Of a DNA stretch of 64,000 nt, positions 2,383-29,831 are shown piece by piece. Below the pieces are notes generated by a model that was given only the letters and a program-made list of their open reading frames with translations, had not been told where the DNA came from and did not search any database. Source of the DNA: an uncultured Synergistales bacterium (GTDB lineage Bacteria; Synergistota; Synergistia; Synergistales; JAFGMB01); assembly GCA_964410915.1 (NCBI GenBank), contig CAYPIU010000005.1, positions 10,834 to 74,833 of the forward strand, given 5' to 3'. Both the position numbers and the translations under genes were made by a program. Numbering within the stretch: position 1 is the first letter of the stretch; every line of letters starts with the position of its first letter.

Positions 2383-2418
2383 GCAGTGTAATCCTCCCCG
2401 AGTTATGTGGATAAGAAC

Positions 2419-2460
2419 ATTAGAGATCCAGGGGCAGATATCTGCCCCTGGATCTCTAAT
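2419..2460. terminator. Perfect 42-bp palindrome (hairpin; intra-operon terminator or processing element)
   Basis: attagagatccaggggcagat|atctgcccctggatctctaat, between the TAXI solute-binding gene and the permease. Confidence 0.7.
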
Positions 2461-2466
2461 CATGAA

Positions 2467-3414: not shown

Positions 3415-3494
3415 AATTTTCCCTCCTTAAATTGTGATCCTTTTTCGTTGTTCCCCCCTTGAAACATTAAATCCAGAATTCTCTCCGAACTTCC

Positions 3495-4862: not shown

Positions 4863-4905
4863 CTCCTTCTTTTATAATTGAAATATTGCTTGTTTTAAAT
4901 CAATA

Positions 4906-7707: not shown

Positions 7708-7808
7708 TACTAAAATATTCCTCCTCAAAAATAGGCTTGTTAATCCGGTTTTATGAATATCCGGGCGGGGTTCTTACAGGGGGTAAACGCACCGCCCGGA
7801 GAAAAGTT

Positions 7809-9305: not shown

Positions 9306-9377
9306 GGGAAATCCTCCTCAACAAATCATTATCCGGAAAGGGGAATCCCTTCCAGCAGTCTGATCATTTATCTAAAA

Positions 9378-10433: not shown

Positions 10434-10452
10434 TGAAAACACTCCTCCAGGA

Positions 10453-11211: not shown

Positions 11212-11246
11212 GACTATCCCACCTTTGCAAAAATGAACGAAAAAAA

Positions 11247-12014: not shown

Positions 12015-12015
12015 T

Positions 12016-12504
12016 TTATTCACCCTTCTCGTAGATATTAAAAAGAGGGAATTCAGTTTCTTCGTCAAATGCTCTCAGAATATCAACATTATCAAAACCT
12101 TCTACAAGAACTTCCATTGTGCTCATCACCGGATTACCACCTTCTACAAAGTGAGCACCATGAAAGCCCTGTTCAGGATCAGAGATAACGCCATGAAGAT
12201 GAACAGCAGTCTCGCCTGTATCTGAGAACTGGCCTATCATTCCACTTCCGCATATAAACTCGAGAGGCCCGTCGATATCTACAGGATCCCCGTACTTGGC
12301 ATTCATTTTTGTACCCGGCGCAGGAAGGGCCCATACAAATCTGGCTTTAGAAAGACTGCCGTGCATGGCAGTTATACATCCTGCTGTAATATCATTATCT
12401 TTACAAACCTTAAGTACTCCGGCCAGAAGATCTGTACCAGGCATCAGGCGAGCAACAACTTTTTTTCCTGTTACCTGTACCGAAGAAGTTCTTACATCAG
12501 ACAT
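12016..12504 (-). CDS. DUF296 / PPC-domain protein
   Basis: ARLMPGTDL, GSL, LEF, VHLHG...GAHF and TMEV pattern typical of DUF296. Confidence 0.85.
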   Translation of the reverse strand: MSDVRTSSVQVTGKKVVARLMPGTDLLAGVLKVCKDNDITAGCITAMHGSLSKARFVWALPAPGTKMNAKYGDPVDIDGPLEFICGSGMIGQFSDTGETAVHLHGVISDPEQGFHGAHFVEGGNPVMSTMEVLVEGFDNVDILRAFDEETEFPLFNIYEKGE

Positions 12505-12519
12505 TTAATACCCTCCGTT

Positions 12520-13500
12520 CTAAAACATACCTTTTATTGCATTAGCAATTTTTTCGGGGGTTACCCTGTAAGCCTGTTCAAGAGGTTTGGCAAAAGGCAC
12601 CGGGGTAAATGGAGCTCCAACTCTTGTAATCGGAGCATCAAGGTAATCAATGCCTTCTTCAGCTACAATAGCGGAAATTTCAGCTCCTACTCCGCCCTGT
12701 TTTACAGCTTCATGTGCGATAGCAAGTCTGCTGGTTTTAGCTATTGATTCAAGGATCGTCTCTTTATCAATAGGTGAAATAGTTCTCAGATCGACACATT
12801 CTACACTGATGCCGTCTTTTTCAAGCATCTCTGCTGCCTGCAGGCAATGGTTGAAACAAAGTGAATAGGATACAAGGGTTACATCCTTACCCTCTTTAAC
12901 AACCTTCGCCTTTCCTATGGGAGTAAAGAATTCTTCTTCAGGAACCGGGCCTGACATTCTGAACAGAGACTTGTGCTCAAAATAGACTACAGGATTATCA
13001 TCTCTTATGGCTGACTTGAGCAAACCTTTGGCATCGGCAGGATTTGAAGGAATTACAACCTTGAGTCCGGGAACATGCATGAACCAGGATTCTATGCTCT
13101 GGGAGTGCTGGGCAGCTGCCTGGTTAATAAGTCCGTCAGGAGCCCTGAGTACCATTGGGACCGTCTTCTGACCACCGAACATGTAATGGATCTTGGCCAT
13201 CTGATTATAGATCTCATCCATACAGACACCCATAAAGTCCGCAAAATGCATATCGGCTATTGGACGCATACCGGCAAGGGCTGCACCTACGCATGCTCCC
13301 AATATGGCTGTTTCTGTTATAGGTGTATCCTTGACCCTGTCAGATCCGAACTGATCAGGAAGACCCTTAAACTGGCCGAATATTCCACCCTGTCTTGCGA
13401 TATCTTCCCCCATGATAAATACATTGCTGTCGCGGCTCATCTCCTCCTGCATTGCTTCAAGAGTAGCCTGGGAAAATGTAATTTCTCTCATATTATTCAC
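12520..13500 (-). CDS. acoB: TPP-dependent dehydrogenase E1 beta subunit (acetoin/pyruvate dehydrogenase type)
   Basis: MGEDI..GG, DTPITE, AQHSQS, DLRTISP motifs. Confidence 0.93.
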   Translation of the reverse strand: MNNMREITFSQATLEAMQEEMSRDSNVFIMGEDIARQGGIFGQFKGLPDQFGSDRVKDTPITETAILGACVGAALAGMRPIADMHFADFMGVCMDEIYNQMAKIHYMFGGQKTVPMVLRAPDGLINQAAAQHSQSIESWFMHVPGLKVVIPSNPADAKGLLKSAIRDDNPVVYFEHKSLFRMSGPVPEEEFFTPIGKAKVVKEGKDVTLVSYSLCFNHCLQAAEMLEKDGISVECVDLRTISPIDKETILESIAKTSRLAIAHEAVKQGGVGAEISAIVAEEGIDYLDAPITRVGAPFTPVPFAKPLEQAYRVTPEKIANAIKGMF

Positions 13501-13505
13501 CGCCC

Positions 13506-14510
13506 CTATACATAAAGGTCCTGATATAATTCGGAAGGATCAGGCTCTGGTGATTCTGTTGCAAATTTTATAGCCTCATCAACTTCTTTAACAACCCGGT
13601 CTTTGATCTCGTCAAGCTCTTTCCTGTCCATAACCTTTTCCTCAAGGACTCTCTGTTCGAAACGTACTATTGGATCATTTTCATCGGAGACCTTCTGTAC
13701 CTCTTCCTTGGTCCTGTATTTTTCAGGATCTCCTACGAAATGTCCTTTAATACGATAGGTCTTGCATTCAAGAAGGGCAGGACCCTCTCCATTGCGCATT
13801 TTTTCAACAAGCTGTTTTGTAGCTTCATATACTGCGAATACGTCATTGCCGTCCACTATTACGCCAGGCATATCATAACCCTGGGCCCTGTCTGCAATAT
13901 CTTCCACAGATGTAGTTGTCAGGTAAGGAGTGGTTGAAGCCCACTGGTTATTTTCACAGACAAAAAGAACTGGCAGATCCCATGCAGATGCCATGTTGGC
14001 CGCTTCATGGAAGGTTCCGCGGTTTGATGCTCCATCTCCAAAGAAAACTACTGAAATATCTTTTCTTCCAAGCATCTTGCACGCCAGACCTGCACCGGTT
14101 GCGAGAGTATAGCCACCGCCGACAATGCCGTTTGCTCCAAGCATACCCACGCTGAAATCCGCAATATGCATGGAACCGCCCTTACCTTTGCAGAAACCTG
14201 TTTTTTTCCCGAATATCTCTGCCATCATCTTTTTGAGATCCGCACCCTTAGCTATAGTATGGCCATGACCTCTGTGAGTGGTCTCGATATAGTCATTCTT
14301 CGTAAGGTTACTCATAATACCAGTACCTGTGGCTTCTTCACCTATATAAAGGTGAACAAATCCGGGTATCTCGCCTGCAAGGAACTTTTTCTCAATGTTG
14401 GTCTCAAAATACCTGATTTTCACCATTGTTTCGTAAAAATGTTCAAGAAGCTCCTTGTCATATTTTTTGATAGAGGAAGGCCCCTTTTTTCTTACGGGTT
14501 TAGCACACAT
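13506..14510 (-). CDS. acoA: TPP-dependent dehydrogenase E1 alpha subunit (acetoin dehydrogenase type)
   Basis: GFVHLYIGEEA, THRGHGH, GKGGSMH, TPP motif GDGASNRGTFHE...NN, TYRIKGH. Confidence 0.93.
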   Translation of the reverse strand: MCAKPVRKKGPSSIKKYDKELLEHFYETMVKIRYFETNIEKKFLAGEIPGFVHLYIGEEATGTGIMSNLTKNDYIETTHRGHGHTIAKGADLKKMMAEIFGKKTGFCKGKGGSMHIADFSVGMLGANGIVGGGYTLATGAGLACKMLGRKDISVVFFGDGASNRGTFHEAANMASAWDLPVLFVCENNQWASTTPYLTTTSVEDIADRAQGYDMPGVIVDGNDVFAVYEATKQLVEKMRNGEGPALLECKTYRIKGHFVGDPEKYRTKEEVQKVSDENDPIVRFEQRVLEEKVMDRKELDEIKDRVVKEVDEAIKFATESPEPDPSELYQDLYV

Positions 14511-14555
14511 TTAAATACCTCCTTGAATTTAGAGTTCCAGCTAATCTATATGCCA

Positions 14556-15875
14556 CTAGGTTACGATAGATGGAAGCCACGTAACTATCTGAGGCCAGAT
14601 AATGCAAAGTGTAAGCGCTATGGCCTGCAGAATTACGAAGGGCGCGACTCCCCAATAGATTTCTTTTGTTGTAACACTTGGTGGTGCAACACCCTTGACG
14701 AAGAATATCGCATAGGCAAATGGCGGCGTAAGGAAAGACATCTGCAGATTAATGCATATGAGGAGAACAAAGTAAAGTGGATCGATCCCGAGATGTATTG
14801 CAATGGGGAGGAAGATCGGGACTACTATGTAGACGATACCGATCCAGTCGAGGAACATGCCCATTATGAAAACAGTGAACATCATTACAAAGACAACTCC
14901 CCACTTTCCAAGCCCAAGCCCGAGGAGAGCAGATTCTATAAGAGCTCCTCCACGCATGAAAAGAAACACTGATGTAAACATGGATGCACCAACAATTACA
15001 AAGAACACCATGGATGTTACCTTAATTGTCTCGTAAACAGCATCTTTTACAGTTTTGAGATTAAGTTTCCTGTAGAGAAGGGCGATTATAACTGCTCCAA
15101 GTCCTCCAAGGGCGGATGCCTCTGTTGGAGAAGCTATGCCTAAAAGAATAGAACCAAGAACAGCAAAAAGCAGACCAAGAATGGGAAGCATATAAACTAA
15201 GGTCTGAACGAGAAGCTGCTTGTTTGTACTCTCGGCTCTTTCCTCATCGGAAATCGAAGGAGCGATCGATGGCTGTAACCAGCATCTGATAACAATATAA
15301 GCGATATACAGAGAGGCAAGCAGAAGACCAGGCATAAGTGCGCCTGAAAACAATTTGGCAACTGAAAGATTTGTCATGGGTCCAAGTACGACCAGCATGA
15401 CACTCGGGGGGATCAGTATACCAAGGGTCCCACCCGCACAGACAACACCTGTTGAGAGTCCATGATCATAATTCCTCTGCAACATAGCCGGGAGTGCCAT
15501 AAGGGTCATTGTAGTGACCGATGCAGCTATTACTCCTGTGCAGGCAGCAAAAAGGGTACTGATTATTATCGTTGTAAGAGCAAGACCGCCTTTAATAGGA
15601 CCAAGCAGCTTATACATTGTATTAAACAATTTTTCGGCTGCTCCGCTTTTCTCAAGGATACAGCCCATGAATACAAAAAGCGGAACGGCTATCAGAATCT
15701 CGTTCTGCATCGTCCCAAAAATATTCTGCATATACAGGGACAACATCGCGGGGCCCCTGTAATACACGCCAAAAGTAACCCCAAGGAACATCATGGCAAA
15801 TGCAAGGCGAATACCTGACATAACCATGATTATAAGGATAACTAACATTGAAACAGCAAGGACTTCAGGACTCAT
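14556..15875 (-). CDS. dctM: TRAP transporter large permease DctM
   Basis: AVPLFVFMG, GTLGILIPPS, SPTEA, SFLTPPF motifs. Confidence 0.93.
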   Translation of the reverse strand: MSPEVLAVSMLVILIIMVMSGIRLAFAMMFLGVTFGVYYRGPAMLSLYMQNIFGTMQNEILIAVPLFVFMGCILEKSGAAEKLFNTMYKLLGPIKGGLALTTIIISTLFAACTGVIAASVTTMTLMALPAMLQRNYDHGLSTGVVCAGGTLGILIPPSVMLVVLGPMTNLSVAKLFSGALMPGLLLASLYIAYIVIRCWLQPSIAPSISDEERAESTNKQLLVQTLVYMLPILGLLFAVLGSILLGIASPTEASALGGLGAVIIALLYRKLNLKTVKDAVYETIKVTSMVFFVIVGASMFTSVFLFMRGGALIESALLGLGLGKWGVVFVMMFTVFIMGMFLDWIGIVYIVVPIFLPIAIHLGIDPLYFVLLICINLQMSFLTPPFAYAIFFVKGVAPPSVTTKEIYWGVAPFVILQAIALTLCIIWPQIVTWLPSIVT

Positions 15876-16375
15876 TCCGATTCTCCTTTAATAGCTTTCT
15901 GCAGATTTCTGTAAAGTTCCACAAATCCCTGCATGAACATCATTCCAAAACCGATGGGAATAACTGTTTTAACAGGACCAGATGGGAATCTCCAGAGTGT
16001 GGTAGAGAGCCTCTCTCCATGTGACCAGGCAAATGCTGCAAAATCAACTGACTTCCAGGTCAGCAAACCCATAATGGGAAGAAACAGGATAGCGAAAAAG
16101 AAGACGTCAAACCATGCCTGGTATTTTGCGGGAAGAGAACTGAAAATAATGTCGATTCTGACGTGTCTCTTATGTACCATTGTATAGGCTCCTCCAAGAA
16201 GGAACATGGCACTGAATAACATCCAGGCTGTATCGTATACCCAGTCAGTAGGACTGTTCAAAACATATCTTATCAGGACTTCGTAAACCACAACGGCATT
16301 GAGGGGAATTACAAGCCATGCACCGAATATACCTACTTTTTCATTGAACTTTTCTATGATATCTAAAAGTCCCAT
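15872..16375 (-). CDS. dctQ: TRAP transporter small permease DctQ
   Basis: Four TM segments, YEVLIRY, HVRIDI. Confidence 0.92.
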   Translation of the reverse strand: MGLLDIIEKFNEKVGIFGAWLVIPLNAVVVYEVLIRYVLNSPTDWVYDTAWMLFSAMFLLGGAYTMVHKRHVRIDIIFSSLPAKYQAWFDVFFFAILFLPIMGLLTWKSVDFAAFAWSHGERLSTTLWRFPSGPVKTVIPIGFGMMFMQGFVELYRNLQKAIKGESE

Positions 16376-16401
16376 AGATTCAGATTACCTCCTATGCCAG
16401 A

Positions 16402-16427
16402 GGTTGGCCCGAACTTTCGGGCCAACC
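16402..16427. terminator. 11-bp-stem hairpin between dctP and dctQ
   Basis: ggttggcccga-actt-tcgggccaacc; the usual position for stabilising the solute-binding-protein mRNA or partial termination. Confidence 0.55.
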
Positions 16428-16466
16428 AGGCTTTTCAGTTAACATAGAATAATAATTTTGTAATTA

Positions 16467-17510
16467 TTATTTATCGAACTTAGTAAAGTTGTAGAAGTCC
16501 ACATAGGATTCGAGGAACTGCTTCTGTGATTCCCAAACCTTCTTGAACATTGGATCTTCCTCGGATTTCTCATCAAGGATCTCGTAGGAAAGCTTGAGAG
16601 CCTTCATCTGGTCTTCTTTGGAGAGCTTGTTGATCTCCACACCAGCTTCCTTGATCTGATCAAAGGCCGTACTACTATCAACATAGAACTGGGAATAACC
16701 CTCGAAAGAAGCGGCTATAGCTGCATTTTTGACAATTGCTTTCAGATCGTCAGGAAGAGCTTCCCATTTTGCCGGGTTGATGACGAGCTGAAAAATGTTG
16801 GAACCCATGTGGATCGGGGGACCCATAAGGTAATCGCAGACTTCATGAAGTCCAAGTCCTACGTCCATGCTCGGGAATGCAAATTCAGCTCCGTCGATAA
16901 CGCCTCTGCGGAGAGAAGGTACTACCTCGCCGCCGGGAAGAAGGACAACGGAAGCTCCAAGTTTCTGCCAGAGCTCCATGCTCAGACCAGCGGAACGGAC
17001 CTTAAGACCCTTGATATCATCCAGGGTCTTGACCGGCTTAGTGGTCCAGATACCTGATTCGGGGGGGGTAAGACCGAGGGGAAAGACCTTTATGGCATCG
17101 CCGTACATCTCATCGGCAAGGGCCTGGCCTTCTCCGCCATACATCCATACGAGAAGATCATTTGTCTCAGTAACACCTGCGGGGAGGGTATAGAAAAGAT
17201 CGCCGGCAGGATACTGCCCCTTCTGCCAGGCGGGAGTATTCTGTCCACAGTCAAGGACACCGTCACGGACTGAATCGAAAACTGCGGGTCCGGGGACGAT
17301 CTCGCCTGAACCGTGAACTTCTATTACAAGACGTCCACCACTCATGGCTTCGACTTTTTCAGCCCACATGGGGAAATATGCACCCACAGGGAGTTTTACA
17401 GGGAAGCAGCTCTGTCCAATCCATTTGTAGCTGTCTGCAGCGACAGCAGACATGGCCATTGTAAGTACCATGACTACAGCTATTGCGACCAATAAAGCTT
17501 TTTTCTTCAT
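16467..17510 (-). CDS. dctP: TRAP solute-binding protein DctP, TakP-like (monocarboxylate/2-oxoacid subfamily)
   Basis: Signal peptide; AEKVEAMSGGRLVIEVHGSGEIVP, DSVRDGVLD, KGLKVRSAG, LPGGEVVPSL. Confidence 0.9.
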   Translation of the reverse strand: MKKKALLVAIAVVMVLTMAMSAVAADSYKWIGQSCFPVKLPVGAYFPMWAEKVEAMSGGRLVIEVHGSGEIVPGPAVFDSVRDGVLDCGQNTPAWQKGQYPAGDLFYTLPAGVTETNDLLVWMYGGEGQALADEMYGDAIKVFPLGLTPPESGIWTTKPVKTLDDIKGLKVRSAGLSMELWQKLGASVVLLPGGEVVPSLRRGVIDGAEFAFPSMDVGLGLHEVCDYLMGPPIHMGSNIFQLVINPAKWEALPDDLKAIVKNAAIAASFEGYSQFYVDSSTAFDQIKEAGVEINKLSKEDQMKALKLSYEILDEKSEEDPMFKKVWESQKQFLESYVDFYNFTKFDK

Positions 17511-19761: not shown

Positions 19762-19988
19762 GGTTTACCCCCATTTTTGAAAAATATTAGAATAAGACCT
19801 TCATATAAAATATATCACTAAAAACTGGATATTGTATTTTTTAAATAGACACACAAGTTTCTATAATGATATTCCCATATTTAAACATTTCAGAAAACGA
19901 TATTTTTTTGACATGGTATTATTTGTAAAAAGTATTTGGAACATTCAAGCGAATAGTCTGGATTTAATACTCAGGAGGGATGTAATCA

Positions 19989-20984
19989 ATGGATCATCTT
20001 GAAAAACGTATCGCTCTCGGCAACCTGCCTACTCCGATACAAAAAATGAATAACATAAGCAGATTTCTCGAAGGACCAGACATTTACATTAAGCGGGACG
20101 ATCTCACTGGAGTCGCCTTTTCCGGAAACAAGGTCAGAAAACTCGAATTTTGCGGAGCCTTTGCTCTGGAAAAAGGATATGATGTTCTGATCTCCTGCGG
20201 AGGTATCCAGTCAAACCACGCAAGGGCGACTGCCGCTGCAGCTTCAAAACTTGGGCTTGGATGTCACCTGGTTTTAGGTGGGAAAAAACCTGTGGATACA
20301 GAGGGAAATCTTTTCCTGGATCAGATACTTGGAGCTTCGATCACTTTTGCCGATGGATATGGTCTTAACGAGATGGAAGATCTGATGGAAGAAATTGCTG
20401 AAGATTACAGAACAAAGGACTTCAAACCATATATCATTCCCCTGGGAGCATCCGATGCAAGGGGATCTCTTGGATATATAAAAGCATCTATGGAAATGAA
20501 AGAACAGTTTGATAACCAGGGATTCGAACCGGATCATATTATATGCCCCACGGGTTCGGGTGGAACTCTTTCAGGACTCCTGGCAGGCAAAGATCTTTGT
20601 GGAATATCATCAAGAATAACGGGTTTCAGCGTAGCCTTTGATTCCATGTCAGTAAAGTCAAAAGTCATGAGTGTCCTTGAAGAGATCAAGGGAAGTTATT
20701 TCCCCGAATTGAACATTGAAGAAATTAATATTAACGTCAATGACAGCTATATCGGGGAGGGATATACGAAAACCACCATGGAACAGCTGAAAATGATCAA
20801 AGAAGTTGCAAGCAGGGAAGCTCTCCTTTTTGATCCGACTTATACCGGCAAAGCTTTCTATGGAGTTACCGAAGAAATTCGCAATGGGAAATATCGAAAA
20901 GGTGAAAAAATCCTCTTCATTCATACTGGGGGAGTTTTTGGACTATTTCCTTATAAAGAAAGATTTAGAGAAGATATTTTCTGA
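19989..20984 (+). CDS. dcyD: D-cysteine desulfhydrase family PLP enzyme
   Basis: IKRDDLTG..FSGNKVRKLEF, QSNHARATA, GSGGT, DPTYTGK (Thr, not the Glu of ACC deaminase), HTGG. Confidence 0.88.
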   Translation: MDHLEKRIALGNLPTPIQKMNNISRFLEGPDIYIKRDDLTGVAFSGNKVRKLEFCGAFALEKGYDVLISCGGIQSNHARATAAAASKLGLGCHLVLGGKKPVDTEGNLFLDQILGASITFADGYGLNEMEDLMEEIAEDYRTKDFKPYIIPLGASDARGSLGYIKASMEMKEQFDNQGFEPDHIICPTGSGGTLSGLLAGKDLCGISSRITGFSVAFDSMSVKSKVMSVLEEIKGSYFPELNIEEININVNDSYIGEGYTKTTMEQLKMIKEVASREALLFDPTYTGKAFYGVTEEIRNGKYRKGEKILFIHTGGVFGLFPYKERFREDIF

Positions 20985-21025: not shown

Positions 21026-22135
21026 ATGCTTCGCCAGACCTGGATGGAAATATACACGGATAATCTTCGCTCCAATTACAGGGAAGTAAGAAGGCTCATC
21101 CCTGAGGATTGCAAAATAATCGCAGTAGTAAAAGGTAACGCCTATTCCCATGGAGCAGTAGAAACAGCAAAGGTTTTCAGATCTGAAGGATGCCAGTGGT
21201 TCGCAGTAGCAACCCCTGAAGAAGCCCTTGAACTGAGATGCAACGGAATAAAAGAAAAAATACTTGTAATGGCAGCATCTACTGCTGAAGCCGCAGAAGC
21301 ATATATAACTAATGACATCTCTGCAGCATGCGGAGATTTCAGATTTTTAGACATTATGAACAGAGCAGCCCTGAAGACAGGGAAAAAAGCCAGGGTACAC
21401 ATAAAGTTTGATACAGGACTGAGCAGAACGGGATTCTTTGAAACAGATATCCCGAAACTCACACAAAAACTCAGATATTCCGAAGGAATTGTAATGGAAG
21501 GCACCTTCACCCATTTTGCAACTGCTGACGAGACAAATCCGGATTACACAAAATGGCAGTACTCGAGGTTTAAAAATGCAATGTCAGATATGGCCGCAAA
21601 AGGTTTCCCATCAGATTTTCAACACGTCTGCAACAGCCCTGCCACAGTCAACTTCCCGGAATACAGCCTTGATGCGGTCCGGCCTGGAAACCTTCTTTAC
21701 GGACTACCCAGCGGAAGATGTTCAAGAACAGTCGCTCTTAAACCCGCATGCGCATTTAAGACCCGAATTGCAGTTATTCGTGAACTTGAAGCAAGAACAG
21801 GCGTAGGTTATGGCCTGAAATATATGACAAGAGGCAGGCAGAGAACAGGTATTCTCCCTGTAGGGTTTTATGACGGAATGACGAGGCTGCTGTCTGGGAA
21901 AGCAGAGGTACTTGTAAGGGGACGCAGGGTCCCGGTGATAGGAAATATATGCCTTGACCAGACTATAATTGACCTGACGGAAGTTCCCGAAGCAAGAGAG
22001 GGTGACGAAGTTGTGCTTATAGGAAGACAGGGCGAAGAAGAAATATCAGTAAAGGATGTAGCCGATAAGCTGGGGTCTATAGTCACTCAGGTACTAAGTT
22101 TCATAACAGCGAGGGTACCCCGAGTCTATATATAA
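21026..22135 (+). CDS. alr: Alanine racemase family (fold type III)
   Basis: AVVKGNAYSHG (PLP Lys), HIKFDTGLSRTG, FTHFATAD, VRPG, GVGYG (catalytic Tyr), GNICLDQ. Confidence 0.92.
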   Translation: MLRQTWMEIYTDNLRSNYREVRRLIPEDCKIIAVVKGNAYSHGAVETAKVFRSEGCQWFAVATPEEALELRCNGIKEKILVMAASTAEAAEAYITNDISAACGDFRFLDIMNRAALKTGKKARVHIKFDTGLSRTGFFETDIPKLTQKLRYSEGIVMEGTFTHFATADETNPDYTKWQYSRFKNAMSDMAAKGFPSDFQHVCNSPATVNFPEYSLDAVRPGNLLYGLPSGRCSRTVALKPACAFKTRIAVIRELEARTGVGYGLKYMTRGRQRTGILPVGFYDGMTRLLSGKAEVLVRGRRVPVIGNICLDQTIIDLTEVPEAREGDEVVLIGRQGEEEISVKDVADKLGSIVTQVLSFITARVPRVYI

Positions 22136-22514
22136 ATGCCCTGCTGATAGAATCAGACTTAAAGTAAATTCTTTAAAATATTTCTTAAAATAAGTATATT
22201 TAAGATACATAAGCCATTGTATCCGCTAAAATACATAATACATTCGATCCAGCTAAAATTAGAAACGATATTTTTTAAAATTCTTCGTTGGCTTAACTTC
22301 TTCAATTAACCCCAAGAACCCTATCGAATCAGTGTTAGCAGGTATTTAGCAGATAACATGCAATCGATAAAAAAATTATAAGTAGCATTTTGTGAATTTG
22401 CGGATTATTTTGACACTTACTATACTCTCAGGTAATATATTTTTTGCATACAGACAATTCCGTATTACGGAATTGTCTGTATAAATCCAGTAGAGTCGGA
22501 GAATTTGTAGAGCT

Positions 22515-23294
22515 ATGGTTAAAAATACCAGACACAGCGAACTTGTTCAGTCCGTTATCCGTTCTTTTTCCATTGTTGAACTTCTTTCTTCCTTCGGCGA
22601 ACTGGGGATCAGTGAAATCAGTATTCATACCCAACTCGAGAAGAGTACGGTGGCACGATTGCTCAAAACTCTTCAACACCTTGGTTATGTCGTACAAAAC
22701 TCTTCCAATCATAAATATAAGATAGGCTTAAAGCTTTTTGAGATGGGTATAACGGAACTTGAGAGAAACACTGTTAAATTGCTTGCACATCCACATCTCG
22801 AAAATCTTTCCTGTGAAACCGGAGAATTTGCCTCTATCGGGATTATCGCAGGAAATGAAGTTCTTGTACTGGATAGTGTGAAACCCGATGATACAGGATC
22901 AGGGCACCCGGTATTCGGCAACAGATTGCCTGTATATGCAACCTCCACGGGCAAAGTTCTTCTCGCATTTCAACCAGAATCCAGGCAAAAGATCATACTT
23001 GAGAATATCAATTTCAATATTTTCACAAAGAACACGCTCAAAGACCATGATCAAGTTGCTGAAGAACTTGTCAAGATCCGCGGGAAAGGGTACGCAACGG
23101 ATAAAGAAGAGTTAAGCTATGGATTTTTTTCATGTGCCGTACCCATAATGAATAGAAAGGGATATGCACTGGCTGGACTTTGTATAACATTTCCCCACAG
23201 GGAAAAAACTGATCTAATGGATTATGGGTCCTTCATAATATCAAAACTTCGTGAGGTTTCCATAAAACTGAGTCTGAAACTCGGTTTTGAATAG
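22515..23294 (+). CDS. IclR-family transcriptional regulator
   Basis: QSVIRSFSIVELL, LEKSTVARLLKTL, YATSTGKVLLA, GYATDKEE. Confidence 0.93.
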   Translation: MVKNTRHSELVQSVIRSFSIVELLSSFGELGISEISIHTQLEKSTVARLLKTLQHLGYVVQNSSNHKYKIGLKLFEMGITELERNTVKLLAHPHLENLSCETGEFASIGIIAGNEVLVLDSVKPDDTGSGHPVFGNRLPVYATSTGKVLLAFQPESRQKIILENINFNIFTKNTLKDHDQVAEELVKIRGKGYATDKEELSYGFFSCAVPIMNRKGYALAGLCITFPHREKTDLMDYGSFIISKLREVSIKLSLKLGFE

Positions 23295-23407: not shown

Positions 23408-24031
23408 ATGATGAAGATCATGACAAGCGGATTATGGAAATTACTGGAATACCCTCAAAAAGCAATAATGATAATTTCTTCTTTATCAATTCTTACACTT
23501 GTTGTTGTTCAGGTTATTTTGCGGTACGTATTTGTAATGCCTCTTATGGGTATAGAGGAAATTGCAACCATGGTAGGCTTCTGGCTTTATTTCATGGGGG
23601 CCTCATGGGGAACTGCAGACAGAAGTCATATCAAAGCTGACCTTGTAAATGCTTTTGTAAAAAATCCAAAGATCCTTGTCTGGATCAAATCTCTTACTGC
23701 ATTCCTTTCTGTATGCCTAAGCCTCTTCATGACATATTGGGGCTGGAAGTATGTCGTCTGGGGATTCCAGAAGGGACAGGCATCTTTCACACTAATGATA
23801 CCTATGATCTATTCCCAGGTAAGCATATTCATCTGCGCACTTCTGATGGATTTCTATTTTGCAGTTGAATTCATGGATTACTTCTCCCAGGCTACAGGAA
23901 AGGCCCCACTGACAATAGGAATGGAAGAAGAAGAAAAGATCGAGGAAGTCCTTGAAGAAACAGGGTTAAAGGATCTTTCCAGTAACATCGGGAAAGATGA
24001 AAAATCCAGCGATAGAGTAACGGAGGAATAG
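23408..24031 (+). CDS. dctQ: TRAP small permease DctQ with acidic C-terminal extension
   Basis: VQVILRY, EEIA, HIKAD, four TM segments. Confidence 0.9.
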   Translation: MMKIMTSGLWKLLEYPQKAIMIISSLSILTLVVVQVILRYVFVMPLMGIEEIATMVGFWLYFMGASWGTADRSHIKADLVNAFVKNPKILVWIKSLTAFLSVCLSLFMTYWGWKYVVWGFQKGQASFTLMIPMIYSQVSIFICALLMDFYFAVEFMDYFSQATGKAPLTIGMEEEEKIEEVLEETGLKDLSSNIGKDEKSSDRVTEE

Positions 24032-24033
24032 AT

Positions 24034-25335
24034 ATGGTTATTGCGATTAATCTTCTTATCCTGATAGGTCTGATAGTCCTCGGCTTACCAGTAGCATTAT
24101 GTTTCATGTCTGCAGCTATCTACATGGGAATGGTTTACGGTTTCAGTTTTGGTTTCCTTCTTCCTGCAGGCTACTACGCTCTTAATTCGCTGACCCTGCT
24201 TTCCATGCCTTTCTTCATTATGGCAGGAGCACTTATGTCATCATCAGGAATTGCACAGAGACTTACAATCTTCGCGCAGGCATTCCTCGGAAGAATGCGT
24301 GGTGGTATGGGAGCAGCAACAATAGTCGCATGTGCAATATTTGGTTCAATAGCAGGAACATGTACAGCTGCCGTGGCATGCATCGGAGGCATCATGATAC
24401 CCCGCCTTGAAAGCTTTGGTTACCCAAGACCCTACTCAGTGGCGATAGTAAGCTGTGCATCCGTTCTTGGACAGCTCATCCCGCCAAGTGTCCCAATGAT
24501 ACTCTACGCATGGGTAACCCAGCAGTCAGTTGCAGCATGCTTCCTGGCCACTGTCCTTCCAGGTATACTGATGACCTTCCTTATGTGTGTACTTAATTAC
24601 TTTGAAGTCAAAAAAATACCAACTATCACCGTAGAACCCAAGATATCTTTTGATGACAAGCTCAAATTGATCGGAAATGCTACAAAAACCGGTATATGGA
24701 GTTTGTTAATGCCTGTAATAATTCTCGGAGGTATTTACGGAGGGATCACTACTCCAACGGAATCTGCTGCTATAGCCATGTTCTACGCGATACTTGTAGG
24801 TTTTCTGATTCACAGGGAGCTCAACCTTAAGAAACTTGGCCATTCACTGGTGAGTTCAGCAACAACAAGCGGCGTCTGCGCATTAATGCTCTTTTTCGTT
24901 TCTATTCTGGCTAAGATCTATACCATGCAGCAGATACCACAGCAGCTTGCAGATTTTCTACTGACACTTTCCGACAACAAGTATGTTCTTCTTTTACTGG
25001 TTAACCTATTCCTGATCATGATCGGCATGATGATGGACGACTTCAGCGGAACAATGCTTGCTGCTCCGCTCCTTCTGCCACTGATGTTAAAGATCGGAGT
25101 CCATCCAGTACATTTCGCCGCCATAGTGGGGACAAACCTGGGACTCGGAAATGTTACTCCTCCGTGTGCACCAATACTTTACCTTGGGGGAAGAATTGGC
25201 GGAGCCTCGTTTGATGAATATGTCAAACCGGCAGCCAAAATAATGCTCATGGTGCAGCTACCGGTCGTTTTAATAACAACATATTTCCCGCAGCTATCAC
25301 TGTTCCTGCCAAAACTCATCATGAACATTAAATAA
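24034..25335 (+). CDS. dctM: TRAP large permease DctM
   Basis: MPFFIMAG, LGQLIPPSVPMILY, TPTESA, GNVTPP. Confidence 0.93.
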   Translation: MVIAINLLILIGLIVLGLPVALCFMSAAIYMGMVYGFSFGFLLPAGYYALNSLTLLSMPFFIMAGALMSSSGIAQRLTIFAQAFLGRMRGGMGAATIVACAIFGSIAGTCTAAVACIGGIMIPRLESFGYPRPYSVAIVSCASVLGQLIPPSVPMILYAWVTQQSVAACFLATVLPGILMTFLMCVLNYFEVKKIPTITVEPKISFDDKLKLIGNATKTGIWSLLMPVIILGGIYGGITTPTESAAIAMFYAILVGFLIHRELNLKKLGHSLVSSATTSGVCALMLFFVSILAKIYTMQQIPQQLADFLLTLSDNKYVLLLLVNLFLIMIGMMMDDFSGTMLAAPLLLPLMLKIGVHPVHFAAIVGTNLGLGNVTPPCAPILYLGGRIGGASFDEYVKPAAKIMLMVQLPVVLITTYFPQLSLFLPKLIMNIK

Positions 25336-25469
25336 CAGCAACAATGGAGTTTTTAGATTCATATATGGATAAATGAAGGAGTGATGCCAGGGAAAAGATC
25401 TTTGAGGTTAAAGGAGAAGTAGAGTTAAAGTAAAATTGGCTCCAAAAATTTCAGGAGGTGTCTAAAATA

Positions 25470-26480
25470 ATGAAAAAGTTCCTGGTAGTATTTTTGGTAG
25501 TAGCTCTGGTAGTAAGCCTTGCTTCAGTAGCCGTTGCAGCACCAAAATGGAAATTCAAAATGGGTCACGCTAATCCTATAGAAACTCCCTATGATCAGAC
25601 GACCAAGCAATTCGCCGAATTTGCCAAAGAGATGACTGACGGACAGGTTGAGGTAAGCATTTTCCCGAATAACCAGCTGGGTGACTGGACTGAAACTTTT
25701 GAGCTTATTATGCGCGGAGACGTCGAAATGGGCTTCCAGATCGCAAATGCTGCCTATGACCCCAGACTGAACTTCGCCTATTATATGCCTTACGTTGTTA
25801 CCAATGTTGAGGAAGCCAAAGAAGCATACGGTCCTGGTGGCTGGGCTCTTGGAATAGCCGAGCAGCTTTGGGCTGATCATGGTATCAAGGCTCTTGCCGT
25901 ATTCCCCGTAGGAGTAGCAGGCGTATCTCTCAGCGAAGTACCTGAGGGCCCGGGGGATCCTGATGTTGCAAAAGGCATGAAGATCCGTGTAATGCCCCTT
26001 AAAGCATGCGAACTTACATACAAAAGACTTGGATATATACCCACCCCTATCCCCTATGCTGAAACCTACAGCGCAATCCAGACCGGTATAGCAGACGGCC
26101 AGATGGGCGGAGGTTCTTTCCAGGCATGGTCCTTCAGAGATGTCAACAGTGTATGGGTAAGATACAATGACTACTTTGAGAACCATTTCATTGTAATAAA
26201 CCAGGATATTTGGGACGATCTTCCTGAAGATGTACAGGAAGGACTCCAGGAAGCAGCAAATAAAGCTTCTGAGATCCGCTGGGAGCAGGTCAAGACTGAA
26301 GACCAGCACTACGTGGATATTCTGAAAAATGATTTTGACTGGACAATCGTCAACCTTTCCAAGGCAGAACTCGATGCATGTGCCAAGGCAGTCCGTGAGG
26401 ATGTATGGCCGGAACTGAAAGAAATGCTCGGAGAAAAACTCTTCAACCAGGCCATGGAAGGCATAGGTATGAGCAATTAG
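25470..26480 (+). CDS. dctP: TRAP solute-binding protein DctP
   Basis: Signal peptide, FPNNQLG, GMKIRVM, YSAIQTGIADGQ. ATG 25470 chosen from the AGGAGG spacing. Confidence 0.92.
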   Translation: MKKFLVVFLVVALVVSLASVAVAAPKWKFKMGHANPIETPYDQTTKQFAEFAKEMTDGQVEVSIFPNNQLGDWTETFELIMRGDVEMGFQIANAAYDPRLNFAYYMPYVVTNVEEAKEAYGPGGWALGIAEQLWADHGIKALAVFPVGVAGVSLSEVPEGPGDPDVAKGMKIRVMPLKACELTYKRLGYIPTPIPYAETYSAIQTGIADGQMGGGSFQAWSFRDVNSVWVRYNDYFENHFIVINQDIWDDLPEDVQEGLQEAANKASEIRWEQVKTEDQHYVDILKNDFDWTIVNLSKAELDACAKAVREDVWPELKEMLGEKLFNQAMEGIGMSN

Positions 26481-26532
26481 TAAGACTCTTTCCAGAAATG
26501 TTTTATAACGGGATAGAGTAAGCTGTTTTTTG

Positions 26533-26566
26533 AAAGGGCGGGTTTATGCCCGCCCTTTTCTTTTCT
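26533..26566 (+). terminator. Rho-independent terminator after dctP
   Basis: aaagggcggg-tttatg-cccgcccttt followed by a T-rich tail. Confidence 0.75.
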
Positions 26567-26662: not shown

Positions 26663-28021
26663 GTGACTTCCAGAAAACTTGACAAATGCATGAAACTGGT
26701 CGAGGAAGATAAGGCTATTACCTCACCTGCAGCAAAAGTACCTTACTACCCACTCGTTGTAAAAAGTGCAAAGGGCTCAATTGTCGAAGATGTGGATGGC
26801 AATAAATATATCGACCTTCTTTCAAGTGCAGGCGCAATAAATACCGGTCACTGCCATCCTGACGTGGTAAAAGCCATAAAAGAACAATCAGAAAAACTTA
26901 TACTCTACACCCATGTTTATATGTATCATGAACCTATCATCGATCTTACCAGGGAACTGATAAATATATCTCCAGGCAACTACAGAAAAAGAGTATTTTA
27001 CGGGCTTTGCGGCTCGGATTCTAATGACGGTGCCATAAAACTTGCCCGAACTTCTACCGGCAGAACCAAGATAATCTCTTTCATTCGGGGATACCACGGA
27101 AGCACATATGGAGCTTTATCGCTTAGCGCTGTAAGCCTCCCGATGAGACGGAATCTTGGCCCCCTTCTCCCTGAGATCTACCATGTCCCTTTCCCAGATA
27201 CTTACAGGACACCCTTTCCTGGAATGTCCGGGGATGAAGTCGCGGATTACACTATAAAACAGATCGAGAATGCTTTCGAGACATATATTCCTGCGGATGA
27301 GGTAGCTGCCTTTATTATGGAACCCATCCAGGGCGATGCGGGACTGGTTGTACCACCCATAAAGTTTGTCAAAGATCTGAAAAAACTTTGCGAAAAACAT
27401 GGAATTCTTTTCTTTTCAGAAGAAGTTCAACAGGGTTTTGGCAGAACAGGAAAATGGTTTGGCATAGAAAATTTTGATGTCATACCTGACGGGATAATAA
27501 TGGGCAAGGCTATGGCATCAGGACTTCCGCTCGGGGGAATGGTCGCAAGAGCAGAACTAATGGAAAACTGGGAAGCACCAGCTCATCTTTTTACTGCTGC
27601 GGGAAACCCTGTATGTTGTGCCGCCTCTCTTGCAACCATAAACGTAATAAGAAATGAAAACCTTCTGGACCATGTAAGCACAATTGGGACCTATGCAAAA
27701 GATCGTTTCACCAGAATGCAGGAGAAATATGAGATCATCGGAGATGTACGTGGAATTGGCCTGTCTATCGCTGTGGACCTTGTAAAGGACAGACTTTCCA
27801 AAGACAGGAACAGGGAAGCAGCTGCCAAGATATGTTATAGATGCTGGGAAAAGGGGCTTTTACTATCCTTCTTCAGCGGATCAGTTCTGAGATTCCAGCC
27901 TCCCCTGGTCATTACAAAAGCACAAATAGACGAATCCATGGATAAAATAGATGCAAGTATTGGAGAATACCTGAAAGGTGATATCCCCGATTCAGTCCTT
28001 GAAACTGTCAAGGGCTGGTAA
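26663..28021 (+). CDS. GABA-aminotransferase-like fold-type-I PLP enzyme, probably an amino-acid racemase/epimerase (isoleucine 2-epimerase / BAR-like)
   Basis: DVDGNKYIDL, YHGSTYG, EPIQGDAG (Asp), GKAMASGLP, APAHLFT.AGNPV, LRFQPPL, terminal GW. This matches my recollection of Lactobacillus Ile 2-epimerase. Confidence 0.8.
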   Translation: MTSRKLDKCMKLVEEDKAITSPAAKVPYYPLVVKSAKGSIVEDVDGNKYIDLLSSAGAINTGHCHPDVVKAIKEQSEKLILYTHVYMYHEPIIDLTRELINISPGNYRKRVFYGLCGSDSNDGAIKLARTSTGRTKIISFIRGYHGSTYGALSLSAVSLPMRRNLGPLLPEIYHVPFPDTYRTPFPGMSGDEVADYTIKQIENAFETYIPADEVAAFIMEPIQGDAGLVVPPIKFVKDLKKLCEKHGILFFSEEVQQGFGRTGKWFGIENFDVIPDGIIMGKAMASGLPLGGMVARAELMENWEAPAHLFTAAGNPVCCAASLATINVIRNENLLDHVSTIGTYAKDRFTRMQEKYEIIGDVRGIGLSIAVDLVKDRLSKDRNREAAAKICYRCWEKGLLLSFFSGSVLRFQPPLVITKAQIDESMDKIDASIGEYLKGDIPDSVLETVKGW

Positions 28022-28066: not shown

Positions 28067-28381
28067 TTGGCTGCCAAAAAGATCCCTGCAGGAACCTGGG
28101 TACAGATCGAGACCGTTGTTCTTGAAGCAGGAAACAGGGCTGAGCATCTCCCGGAAGATACTAAAAGCCATCCTTTACAAATGTGGGTTAAGGGTTACCT
28201 TGGAGAAGAAGCACAAATTGGAGATATCGTAACAATAGAAACAATAATAGGACGGCACCTCCAGGGTAAACTTATTGCTGAAAACCCTCCATATAAACAT
28301 AATTTTGGTCGTGCGATTCCCGAACTCCTCTCTGTAGGAGCTGAACTTCGTAACCTTATCAGAATGGGGGAAGAAAAATGA
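28067..28381 (+). CDS. ortA: 2-amino-4-ketopentanoate thiolase alpha subunit
   Basis: GTWVQI..VVL..G.RA.HLPEDTK..PL.MWVKG, ENPPYKHNFG..IPELL pattern. Confidence 0.92.
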   Translation: MAAKKIPAGTWVQIETVVLEAGNRAEHLPEDTKSHPLQMWVKGYLGEEAQIGDIVTIETIIGRHLQGKLIAENPPYKHNFGRAIPELLSVGAELRNLIRMGEEK

Positions 28382-29787
28382 CCGGTAAAAGCTATAGTGA
28401 AGTAATGGCAAGAAAAAACTCTATAATGAAAAAAGCTCTTGGACTCGACTATGAAGAATTTGAGGGTAAGGGGCTGCGTTTTGACTACGAAGGCATGATG
28501 GAAAAAGCCGGTTACTCCATCGAAGAGGTACGAAAGATACAACAGGAAACAAACGTCGGGAACACCCCTCTGATCGAGCTCAGAAATTTAACCGCTGCAG
28601 CAAGGGCCCTTGCTGCACCCGGGAAAGGCGCAAGGATCTTTGTCAAGGATGAAGCAAGCAATCCTTCCGGGAGTTTTAAGGCCAGGCGAGCTTCCGTTTC
28701 ATGCTATTATGCCGCAGAAAAAGGATACAAGGGCGTTATAGCTGCAACAAGCGGTAATTATGGAGCCGCAGTGGCATCACAGGCAAATATGAGAAATCTT
28801 AAGACCATAATAGTACAGGAACTCTTTGACAGCAGGGGTATAGGTCAACCCGAGATACTTGAAAAGGGTAGAAAATGTGAAGCTTATGGATCGGAAGTTT
28901 TACAGTTAACAGTAGGGCCTGAACTTTTTTATACTTTTCTTCTGACCCTCGAAGAAACAGGATATTTTAATGCATCGCTCTATACTCCCTTTGGAATAGC
29001 AGGAATTGAAACTCTTGGTTACGAATTGACAGAACAGGTCAGGGCAAGATGCGGAAAAGACCCTGATGCTGTTCTGGTAACACATGCTGGAGGGGGGAAT
29101 CTTACCGGAACTGCAAGAGGGCTTGCTAAAGCCGGAGCAACCGATACAAAACTTATAGGTGCCTCTGTTGATCTTACGGGACTCCATATGGCAAGTGATA
29201 ATGACTTTAACAGAAAATCATTTACCACTGGACACACGGGCTTTGGAGTTCCATTTGCTACCTGGCCTGACAGGGCTGATGTACCAAGAAATGCCGCAAG
29301 GCCACTGAGATATATGGACCGATACGTTACGATCTCCCAGGGAGAGGTCTTTTATATTACTGAAGCTCTTGCTCAACTCGAAGGTATGGAAAGAGGACCT
29401 GCCGGAAATACATCCCTGACAGCTGCTTTTGCAATTGCCCAGGAGATGGATGAAGATGAAGTTCTTGTAGTTCAGGAAACTGAATATACTGGCGCTGGTA
29501 AACATTTGACTGCTCAACTTACTTTTGCACGGGAAAACGGAATAGATATAAGACGGGGAGATCCTTCAGATCAGGTCCCCGGTAAAAACATCATAATCCC
29601 GGAAAAAGCATCCATGATAAGTGTAAAAGAAATTGAACTTGACAAATTACGTAAATCCTATATCCGTAATTCTCTAAAACACAACGATATTGAACCGGGA
29701 ACACTTGAAGATGAAGATATTGAATTCCTCGCAGAAGAAGTAAGTAAGGATATTTCCTTTATAAACAAGACACTTAAGGAAATGTAA
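28378..29787 (+). CDS. ortB: 2-amino-4-ketopentanoate thiolase beta subunit (PLP)
   Basis: SYSEVMARKNSIMK, KDEASNPSGSFKARRA, ATSGNYGAA, ERGPAGNTS, QETEYTGAGKH; overlaps the ortA stop. Confidence 0.94.
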   Translation: MTGKSYSEVMARKNSIMKKALGLDYEEFEGKGLRFDYEGMMEKAGYSIEEVRKIQQETNVGNTPLIELRNLTAAARALAAPGKGARIFVKDEASNPSGSFKARRASVSCYYAAEKGYKGVIAATSGNYGAAVASQANMRNLKTIIVQELFDSRGIGQPEILEKGRKCEAYGSEVLQLTVGPELFYTFLLTLEETGYFNASLYTPFGIAGIETLGYELTEQVRARCGKDPDAVLVTHAGGGNLTGTARGLAKAGATDTKLIGASVDLTGLHMASDNDFNRKSFTTGHTGFGVPFATWPDRADVPRNAARPLRYMDRYVTISQGEVFYITEALAQLEGMERGPAGNTSLTAAFAIAQEMDEDEVLVVQETEYTGAGKHLTAQLTFARENGIDIRRGDPSDQVPGKNIIIPEKASMISVKEIELDKLRKSYIRNSLKHNDIEPGTLEDEDIEFLAEEVSKDISFINKTLKEM

Positions 29788-29831
29788 ATTAAACAGGCAG
29801 GGGACATTCCCTGTCCCCTGCCTGTTTAATT
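29787..29831. terminator. Bidirectional terminator between convergent ortB and xth
   Basis: 20-bp stem aattaaacaggcaggggaca-ttccc-tgtcccctgcctgtttaatt. Confidence 0.8.

Follow-up and report, generated by a model that had tools for sequence, protein, structure and literature searches.

The protein encoded on the forward strand at positions 26663-28021 of a 64-kb stretch of DNA from an uncultured Synergistales bacterium (contig CAYPIU010000005.1; the whole stretch is called the window) has homologues that bear names such as '4-aminobutyrate aminotransferase' in the source databases, but is very probably an amino-acid racemase or epimerase that depends on pyridoxal 5′-phosphate (PLP), on a class-III aminotransferase fold. 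Its gene is co-oriented and tightly spaced with ortAB, which encode the D-specific 2-amino-4-oxopentanoate (AKP) thiolase, and lies beside a tripartite ATP-independent periplasmic (TRAP) importer, in operons without the genes of the B12 mutase. Its substrate may be AKP itself, which would be converted from the L- to the D-form and supplied to OrtAB; this reading has substance but is held tentatively.

Family assignment of the 26663-28021 protein

The protein was compared with isoleucine 2-epimerase (ILEP) of Lactobacillus buchneri, the Pyrococcus racemases BAR and ASR (Ala/Ser racemase), the aminotransferase PH1423 and GabT of Escherichia coli, the enzyme of 4-aminobutyrate (GABA) transamination. 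The gene and its diagnostic codons are:

26663..28021, + strand: putative PLP amino-acid racemase/epimerase of the ILEP/BAR family, fold type I (class-III fold), 452 aa; from PF00202, NF006228, PDB and fold matches, and the tree
27335..27337, + strand: codon gat of Asp225, putative second catalytic base (EPIQGDAG); aligned with ILEP D222 and ASR D234
27419..27421, + strand: codon gaa of Glu253, where fold-type-I enzymes have the Asp that binds the pyridine N; aligned with GabT D239 and the Asp of DEV in ILEP
27506..27508, + strand: codon aag of Lys282, predicted Schiff-base lysine; aligned with ILEP K280

The open reading frame starts with GTG, with AGGAG 8 nt ahead, and the database homologues of the 452-aa protein align with it starting at residues 1-4. 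The motifs named in the original prediction, which had been made from the sequence alone, were all found where it had placed them when the codons were read again in the DNA: D225 of EPIQGDAG in atc cag ggc gat gcg gga (I-Q-G-D225-A-G), E253 in tca gaa gaa gtt caa cag (S252-E253-E254-V-Q-Q), K282 in ggc aag gct atg (G-K282-A-M; motif GK282AMASG), and APAHLFTAAGNPV as residues 305-317. D225 was invariant across 25 homologues, and lysine occupied the column of K282 in 215 of 221 aligned relatives.

Pfam recognized only the class-III aminotransferase fold (PF00202, 371 bits). In the NCBIfam scan, the protein passed two generically named equivalogs, NF006228 (PRK08360; 650 bits vs a cutoff of 608) and NF006368 (573 vs 570), and every equivalog for GabT, ArgD, diaminobutyrate or ornithine transaminases stayed far under its cutoff. 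The scores against the GabT models TIGR00700, NF005376 and NF005985 were 349 (cutoff 506.65), 393 (676) and 287 (713). Among proteins of solved structure, the sequence ranking was headed by ILEP (456 bits), BAR (418 bits) and ASR (363 bits), followed by the PH1423 aminotransferase (320 bits), an amino-acid amide racemase (280 bits) and GabT enzymes (∼250 bits). The fold matches of the AlphaFold model (pLDDT 85) came in the same order as the sequence matches, with ILEP on top (TM 0.91), then BAR and ASR. Family scans of the window found neither gabD nor gabP around the gene.

A phylogeny including isoleucine 2-epimerase, BAR and GABA aminotransferases, which the original prediction had proposed as its check, placed the protein within the racemase clade and away from GabT and ArgD. 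The tree was computed with IQ-TREE from 103 sequences, among them the reference enzymes and 64 sequences that represent the clusters of an exhaustive HMMER search through 1.8 billion proteins. The clade comprised 56 rows (SH-aLRT 95), and every characterized racemase of fold type I (ILEP, BAR and ASR) was in it; a clade of 14 rows with the ornithine delta-aminotransferase PH1423 and Bathyarchaeia proteins was its sister, and E. coli GabT was positioned far outside.

The residues tell the same groups apart. PH1423 (PDB 7vno), a proven transaminase and the closest non-racemase, and E. coli GabT share with the window protein the fold, the PLP lysine and the equivalent of Arg410. Unlike it, PH1423 reads EPIQGEGG, HGR (with the Arg) and DDEV, and GabT, which reads EPVQGEGG and ADEVQSG at the columns of D225 and E253, has E211 where the window protein has D225 and R141 where it has S147. 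When the signature was counted over the 221 aligned relatives, sequences with Asp at the column of D225 (the 'switch') had Arg at the column of S147 in 0 of 84 cases, those with Glu at the switch in 79 of 89; in GabT, this Arg (R141) binds the distal carboxylate. ASR, BAR and ILEP carry EPIQGD.G and lack the Arg, and ASR loses its activity in the mutants K291A and D234A (PMC6047364). Pfam, the fold match and the aligned residues revealed the class-III fold, the lysine with an aspartate on the opposite face, and the loss of GabT E211 and R141. It is because of its place in the clade, the PDB and fold rankings, the GabT equivalogs below cutoff and the Asp-switch/no-Arg signature that the protein is read as a racemase, as the original prediction had suspected of this 'GABA aminotransferase', and the match to the Lys/Asp two-base racemases that it had named is borne out by the alignment of D225 and K282 with ILEP D222 and K280. 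By sequence, every feature that defines these racemases is present in the window protein, and those that define GabT are missing.

Asp at the pyridine-N position is near-universal in fold-type-I enzymes, and Glu is atypical of the fold. At the column of E253, GabT, ILEP, ASR and PH1423 have Asp, which hydrogen-bonds to N1 of PLP. As a motif of the SEEVQQG type is present in ∼115 of the 121 closest database homologues, E253 is no sequencing oddity. Within the 221-sequence alignment, Glu occurred at this column in 47 of the 84 Asp-switch sequences vs 0 of the 89 Glu-switch sequences, crystallized Pyrococcus BAR also has it (IDEEVQTG), and the tree implies that Asp and Glu swapped several times within the racemase clade. 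The atypical Glu highlighted originally is thus real (gaa in the DNA) but not peculiar to this gene; it recurs across the racemase clade and, as BAR shows, is compatible with racemase activity. E253 might conceivably tune the partition between racemization and transamination.

The operon and its relatives in other genomes

The operon runs from an iclR gene to ortB, with a second, neighbouring operon upstream:

22515..23294, + strand: IclR-family regulator, first gene of the operon (Pfam HTH_IclR and IclR_C; same position in loci L081 and L087)
23408..24031, + strand: DctQ, small membrane subunit of the TRAP system (PF04290)
24034..25335, + strand: DctM, large membrane subunit of the TRAP system (PF06808)
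25458..26480, + strand: DctP, solute-binding protein of the TRAP system (PF03480)
28067..28381, + strand: OrtA, small subunit of AKP thiolase (NF040739, 131 bits vs a cutoff of 70; PF22010)
28378..29787, + strand: OrtB, PLP subunit of AKP thiolase (NF040741, 845 bits vs a cutoff of 550)
19989..20984, + strand: PLP enzyme of the D-cysteine desulfhydrase/ACC-deaminase family, DcyD-like (TIGR01275, 301 bits vs a cutoff of 289), 41 nt upstream of alr
21026..22135, + strand: alanine racemase alr, fold type III, neighbouring operon (TIGR00492, 325 bits vs a cutoff of 168)

The stop codon of the racemase gene is 45 nt from ortA, which overlaps ortB by 4 nt, and 380 nt lie between alr and iclR. OrtB is 77% identical to OrtB from Ord-bearing clusters and, by this and its equivalog score, is a bona fide AKP thiolase subunit. 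DctP matched its best solved relative only weakly (89 bits). The best named model for the DcyD-like enzyme was D-cysteate sulfo-lyase CuyA, at 312 bits vs a cutoff of 450. Neither tblastn nor family scans detected a homologue of Ord, OraE, Or-4 or Orr in the 64-kb window, and no glycyl radical enzyme is encoded in the operon or the window region.

The neighbourhoods of racemase homologues were examined at 80 genome loci (numbered with an L) and on further contigs. In Synergistota (61-98% identity), dctQMP lies directly upstream of the racemase gene almost always, and at every well-covered locus of the TRAP type. TRAP and OrtB were both present in the window and at 17 of 61 homologue loci with good coverage; another four of these had TRAP only, one (L048) OrtB only, and 39 neither. 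At 17 of the 21 loci with a TRAP link, as in the window, ortAB belongs to the same operon. The genes are arranged either as iclR-dctQMP-racemase-ortAB or as ortAB-dctQMP-racemase, the latter with a gap of 34 nt between ortB and dctQ. An alr gene is located within or beside the racemase cluster in L013, L024, L049, L081 and L160, and a DcyD-like gene beside it in L024 and L081, with the dcyD-alr pair kept in L081 and rearranged in L024. In L013, L049 and L160, the order is Alr-Ord-OrtA-OrtB-DctQMP-racemase, with Ord at 477 bits vs a cutoff of 400. Upstream of this cluster, L160:2059-7754 encodes a Kbl/glycine C-acetyltransferase (543 bits), an epimerase/dehydratase-type short-chain dehydrogenase/reductase (SDR) and a CysK-like PLP enzyme.

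Clostridial homologues (53-64% identity) have a HisC-like class I/II aminotransferase on one side and, on the other, a membrane protein of ∼373 aa; in some cases a class IV aminotransferase or an enzyme of the Amidohydro_3 type is close by. The membrane protein had no match in Pfam or NCBIfam, and its identity as a YkvI transporter was not confirmed. This triad is kept in L015, L019 (for example, L019:8649-12624), L020, L032, L033, L037-L039 and L041, often with an HTH-cupin or sigma-54 regulator, and resembles the Pyrococcus transporter-BAR cluster plus a transaminase. In Pyrococcus, D-allo-Ile induces BAR together with a YkvI-type transporter, a pair that serves the use of D-amino acids (PMC13628549). 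From the TRAP system in Synergistota, the membrane protein in Clostridia and the BAR-transporter pair, it follows that the enzymes of the clade probably act on an imported amino acid. Nine positions, among them T20, L81, P160, D195 and S402, separate TRAP-linked from Clostridial racemases. A residue signature common to all OrtAB-linked racemases was also considered and ruled out, as the L048 racemase differs at these nine positions.

A search with the OrtB profile yielded 80 metagenome loci, which were pooled with all other loci into 95 OrtB rows. The canonical arrangement was found at 65 of the 80, with Ord (526 bits), OraS, OraE (1416 bits), a GlmL-like Or-4 and Orr, each of which passed its cutoff. 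Among the 95 rows, the racemase was present in 21, OraE or Or-4 in 51, and both in none (Fisher p = 3e-9, uncorrected for shared ancestry); OraE, Or-4 or Orr occurred within 10 kb at 0 of the 21 racemase-type OrtB loci vs 51 of the 74 others. Orr was encoded in 31 rows, and the racemase in 0 of those 31. In the OrtB tree, a Synergistota-like clade of 25 rows (support 96) combined 19 loci of the racemase type with five of the canonical type, the latter represented by L090-L093 and L096/L170. As the OrtB copies of the two settings are 74-83% identical, the chemistry of the thiolase is surely the same in both.

L048 is a Bacillota operon (L048:2542-16023), which encodes DctP-DctQ-DctM, a dihydroorotase/hydantoinase-like protein, an EutA/hydantoin-racemase-like protein, a carbamoylase and an OCD-family enzyme, continues with the racemase, OrtA, OrtB, a WrbA-like protein, an Fe-S protein and AOR, and contains neither OraSE nor Ord. 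The operon resembles a pathway for the breakdown of ureides or hydantoins, with AKP thiolase as its last step. On the trees, the L048 racemase falls outside the Synergistota/Clostridia group, and the L048 OrtB groups with the canonical copies of Bacillota (support 98); the pairing of racemase and ortAB therefore arose at least twice. A third independent pairing, which FastTree had suggested for L024, is not counted, as the approximately unbiased (AU) test does not reject a grouping of that OrtB with the Synergistota clade (p = 0.44).

Genes of the ornithine pathway also occur in other arrangements. L096 and L170 encode Ord-OrtAB-OraS-OraE-MutL-like-Orr::arginase, and in L170:13590-15341 and L171:8691-10442, a 583-aa protein with Ala_racemase_N (Orr-like) and Arginase domains closes the canonical cluster; the protein is an apparent fusion of Orr and arginase, which would lead arginine on to D-ornithine. 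A search with the OraE of a Synergistota-like cluster gave only a canonical cluster with this fusion and no match named Synergistota; OraE is 72-79% identical across phyla, so that its identity carries no lineage information. Ord homologues at 64-67% identity were found in unrelated contexts (SDH_alpha, ECH, M20, PALP, ADI) with neither OraSE nor OrtAB. Among these, L172:7610-13416 and L174:4810-12321 encode Ord-like dehydrogenases (64-67% to the Ord of L160) with SDH_alpha, enoyl-CoA hydratase, M20 peptidase and PALP, L174 also with an arginine-deiminase-family gene, and the Ord family may have another role at these two loci.

Substrate and role of the racemase

The original prediction had offered two roles next to ortAB, replacement of ornithine racemase or conversion of the D-alanine product; racemization of AKP itself would be a third option. 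In catalysis, K282 (on PLP) and D225 (on the opposite face) would remove and return the alpha-proton, as in ILEP, BAR and ASR, with Arg410 holding the alpha-carboxylate, S147 standing where transaminases have the Arg for the distal carboxylate, and E253 replacing the pyridine-N Asp. The TRAP system would bring in a gamma-keto amino acid of L-configuration, either L-2-amino-4-oxopentanoate or a compound closely related to it, the racemase would invert C-alpha to give the (2R) form, OrtAB and CoA would cleave (2R)-AKP into acetyl-CoA and D-alanine, and Alr would turn D-alanine back into L-alanine. Inversion would then be the last step before thiolysis and proceed without the B12 mutase, whereas it is the first step in the canonical routes (Orr on ornithine, an epimerase on hydroxyproline).

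AKP is favoured as the substrate because a window-type operon has nothing else between transporter and thiolase, because the neighbourhoods of the racemase and of OraSE are mutually exclusive, and because the pairing recurs in L048, whose hydantoinase/carbamoylase-type enzymes would release an amino acid, assumed to be of L-configuration. The genomic context also fits an enzyme that acts on the substrate side of OrtAB better than one that acts on its product side. Enzymes of the ILEP and BAR types accept side chains of the size of norvaline and leucine (PMC9986279).

Several observations weigh against an AKP racemase. In L168 and L169 (Synergistaceae), DctQMP and the racemase occur with no ortAB within 7-10 kb, and it is therefore the transporter-racemase pair that forms the invariant core. 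The bona fide Ord in L013, L049 and L160 suggests that the route in that lineage passes through 2,4-diaminopentanoate and hence through ornithine. Synergistota-like loci also include split ornithine pathways: L090-L093 (for example, L093:8680-15099), which have no OraSE within 10 kb, encode a divergent IclR (− strand) followed by OrtA-OrtB-Ord, an ArgE/DapE-family deacylase and a YfcC basic amino-acid antiporter. The mutual exclusivity of racemase and OraSE is dominated by one phylum and uncorrected for phylogeny, and the L048 racemase lacks the residues specific to the TRAP-linked enzymes, so that the OrtAB-linked lineages need not share a substrate. We know of no natural extracellular source of L-2-amino-4-oxopentanoate, and the proposed role rests on sequence, fold, phylogeny and gene order.

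Broader, and a little more doubtful, is the possibility that the operon is a self-contained, B12-independent module, in which TRAP would import either L-AKP or acetylpyruvate, the latter to be aminated by the enzyme with alanine regenerated by OrtAB and Alr; in either case, the enzyme would yield (2R)-AKP, and OrtAB would conserve the acetyl group as acetyl-CoA.

Rather unlikely, though the best supported of the other roles, is that of an ornithine racemase that displaced Orr non-orthologously: imported L-ornithine would become D-ornithine, the genes of OraS/OraE (and usually Ord) would lie at another place in the genome, and the pathway would be completed by OrtAB and Alr. All cluster genes of L013, L049 and L160 fit the known pathway, with OraSE alone missing, and Orr is absent from every racemase-type locus but present at 31 canonical ones. 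Closely related OrtB copies (74-78% identical) reside in clusters with Ord or OraE/Or-4/Orr, the OraSE-free clusters L090-L093 belong to the same lineage, and some canonical ornithine clusters (L112, L129, L139) have a TRAP system. The TRAP-linked racemases have also gained polar or acidic residues (T20, D195, S402) compared with the Clostridial ones, and PH1423 of the sister clade binds L- and D-ornithine (PMC9986279). However, the racemase is beside OraSE at 0 of 21 loci, and its independent pairing with ortAB in L048 lacks both OraSE and Ord; the characterized members of the clade act on neutral, not basic, amino acids (PMC9986279). The window DctP, moreover, is just 22-25% identical to the DctP of TRAP-bearing canonical ornithine clusters, and a cation such as ornithine would be an unusual TRAP solute.

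A product-side role, or a general salvage of D-amino acids, is unlikely as well, and slightly more so. Here, TRAP and racemase would bring in D-alanine or other D-amino acids and convert them to the L-form, with OrtAB clustered since it produces D-alanine. Such a role would account for L168 and L169, where TRAP and racemase stand alone, and for the Pyrococcus and Clostridial homologues as transporter-linked genes of D-amino-acid utilization, and it would suit L086, whose homologue is located among M20 and Amidohydro_3 genes. ASR of the same clade is an Ala/Ser racemase, and the OCD-family protein that precedes the racemase in L048 resembles archaeal alanine dehydrogenase (237 bits, below the cutoff) and would complete a path from D-alanine via L-alanine to pyruvate. 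Yet no fewer than six loci have Alr in or beside the operon, so that another alanine racemase would be superfluous there, and none of the 51 OrtB loci with OraE or Or-4, which make D-alanine too, has the racemase, an observation that argues against a general product-side role. A D-alanine importer co-transcribed with a thiolase for another substrate is also hard to rationalize.

Improbable is a true aminotransferase that makes AKP, either from imported acetylpyruvate (2,4-dioxopentanoate), with alanine recycled via OrtAB and Alr, or by acting on C4 of 2,4-diaminopentanoate in place of Ord. The class-III fold with all its PLP-binding residues kept would permit it, organic acids, 2-oxo acids among them, are the typical solutes of TRAP systems, and pyruvate-dependent omega-transaminases also lack the GabT Arg; an alanine cycle would, moreover, account for the linked Alr and retain the acetyl group in acetyl-CoA. 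The protein is, however, inside the racemase clade and not in the aminotransferase sister clade, its switch residue is Asp, as in every proven racemase of the fold, and not Glu or Ala, its closest characterized relatives show racemase activity, and Ord coexists with it in clusters of the L013 type.

Finally, an ordinary GABA (or acetylornithine) aminotransferase, to which class-III fold and database names would point, is hardly conceivable and for practical purposes ruled out by the equivalog scores, the replaced switch residues, the remoteness of E. coli GabT on the tree and the lack of a gabD/gabP context.

Window surroundings, known systems and significance

Apart from its genes, the operon region contains four sequence marks:

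22448..22482, either strand: perfect palindrome with 17-nt arms 1 nt apart (ATACAGACAATTCCGTA / TACGGAATTGTCTGTAT); repeat search, single occurrence in the window
19895..19908, + strand: 14-mer AAACGATATTTTTT upstream of dcyD-alr, with a second copy at 22263-22276 upstream of iclR; two copies in 64 kb vs 0.11 expected
26532..26559, + strand: GC-rich hairpin and T-run after dctP, attenuator- or terminator-like (sequence scan)
29787..29831, either strand: perfect 20-nt inverted repeat, probably a bidirectional terminator at the operon end; a convergent xth gene follows (repeat search)

The palindrome is positioned between a promoter-like TTGACA-17-TAATAT (22410-22438) and the iclR start and is a candidate IclR operator, and the shared 14-mer suggests co-regulation of dcyD-alr and the iclR operon. 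A search for riboswitches and leader RNAs in 19-31 kb of the window gave nothing near gathering scores. Further away, the − strand at 415-5760 carries another class-III aminotransferase gene (3495-4862), whose product has just 28% identity with the racemase and Ser at the switch position, next to a TAXI-type TRAP system (NMT1_3 binding protein and a fused 682-aa DctM) and an RpiR regulator. An acetoin/2-oxoacid dehydrogenase-like cluster (5935-17510, − strand) comprises E1 alpha, E1 beta, E2 and a lipoyl-bearing E3, two SDRs, a Zn-dependent alcohol dehydrogenase and its own DctPQM TRAP system; a 729-aa open reading frame at 45925-48114 (− strand) had no Pfam match at E ≤ 1e-4.

The racemase family is known from ILEP (2013), BAR (2015), ASR (2018) and TK1211 (2021), with structures released from 2016 to 2026, and the mis-annotation of such racemases as GABA aminotransferases has already been documented. 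ILEP (PDB 5wya, 4ysn, 5ll2), the best solved match at ∼46-52% identity, was likewise first annotated as a GABA aminotransferase, and shares EPIQGD.G, GK..ASG, APAHLFT.AGNPVC and LRFQPPL with the window protein. It differs in having IDEVNQG (Asp) for SEEVQQG (Glu) and Y, H and I for T20, L81 and S402, lacks the C-terminal G.IPD.VL...W tail and has no linkage to TRAP or ortAB. BAR (P. horikoshii PH0138; PDB 9wrf), ∼44% identical and in the same clade, shares the Glu at pyridine-N, EPIQGDAG, the C-terminal tail (GKIPDEVL..W) and the pairing with a transporter; its substrate loop reads PVPFFVFTHIGHAVN vs APAHLFTAAGNPV in the window protein, and it is archaeal, with a YkvI-type transporter instead of TRAP and no thiolase neighbour. 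ASR (P. horikoshii PH0782; PDB 9wqz) and the Leu/Met racemase TK1211 are both in the Asp-switch clade; ASR has the same Lys/Asp two-base design (K291/D234) but Asp (MDEV) at pyridine-N. The window protein scores lower against this group, with 363 bits for ASR and with NF004171 (390 vs a cutoff of 639) and NF045634 (420 vs 800) not reached.

The closest pathway is oxidative ornithine degradation, which Clostridium sticklandii and C. difficile encode in the cluster ord-ortA-ortB-oraS-oraE-or4-orr and whose equivalog models OrtA and OrtB of the window pass; the likeness lies in a racemase clustered with OrtAB and in D-alanine as a product. OraS, OraE, Or-4, Orr and Ord are missing from the window and from the racemase-type loci, apart from Ord in three of them (L013, L049, L160). 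As Orr is an Alr-like enzyme of fold type III (NF040742) and the window racemase predicted to be of fold type I, the latter could at most be a functional analogue of Orr. A further route to AKP leads through HplG, after which OrtAB acts. HplG, a glycyl radical enzyme, is a trans-4-hydroxy-D-proline C-N lyase and forms AKP independently of B12 (PMC13450708). Its precursor is already D-configured, so that no AKP racemase is needed. The known routes to AKP are thus B12-dependent ornithine degradation and the HplG route from trans-4-hydroxy-D-proline (PMC13450708). A literature search found no paper that joins OrtAB to a class-III enzyme or a TRAP system, and what appears to be new here is a member of the racemase family, assigned with confidence, in a conserved and undescribed operon.

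For annotation, thousands of clade members that are named GABA or aspartate-family aminotransferases bear the full racemase signature, and a rule of two columns (Asp at the switch, no Arg at the HG-R position) separates racemases from true transaminases. The toggling between Glu and Asp at pyridine-N, with Glu confined to the racemase clade in this sample, provides a natural series for relating protonation of the PLP ring to racemization and transamination. Synergistota rank among the major fermenters of amino acids in digesters and guts, and the combination of TRAP, racemase and OrtAB without the B12 mutase would imply either an ornithine fermentation with an unrecognized racemase and split genes, or an undescribed source of the substrate for AKP thiolase. 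If the operon were indeed a self-contained module, it would entail a new enzyme activity, either an AKP racemase or an AKP transaminase that yields the D-form, together with a ligand new to TRAP systems and, in addition to ornithine and hydroxyproline, a third way into the thiolysis of AKP.

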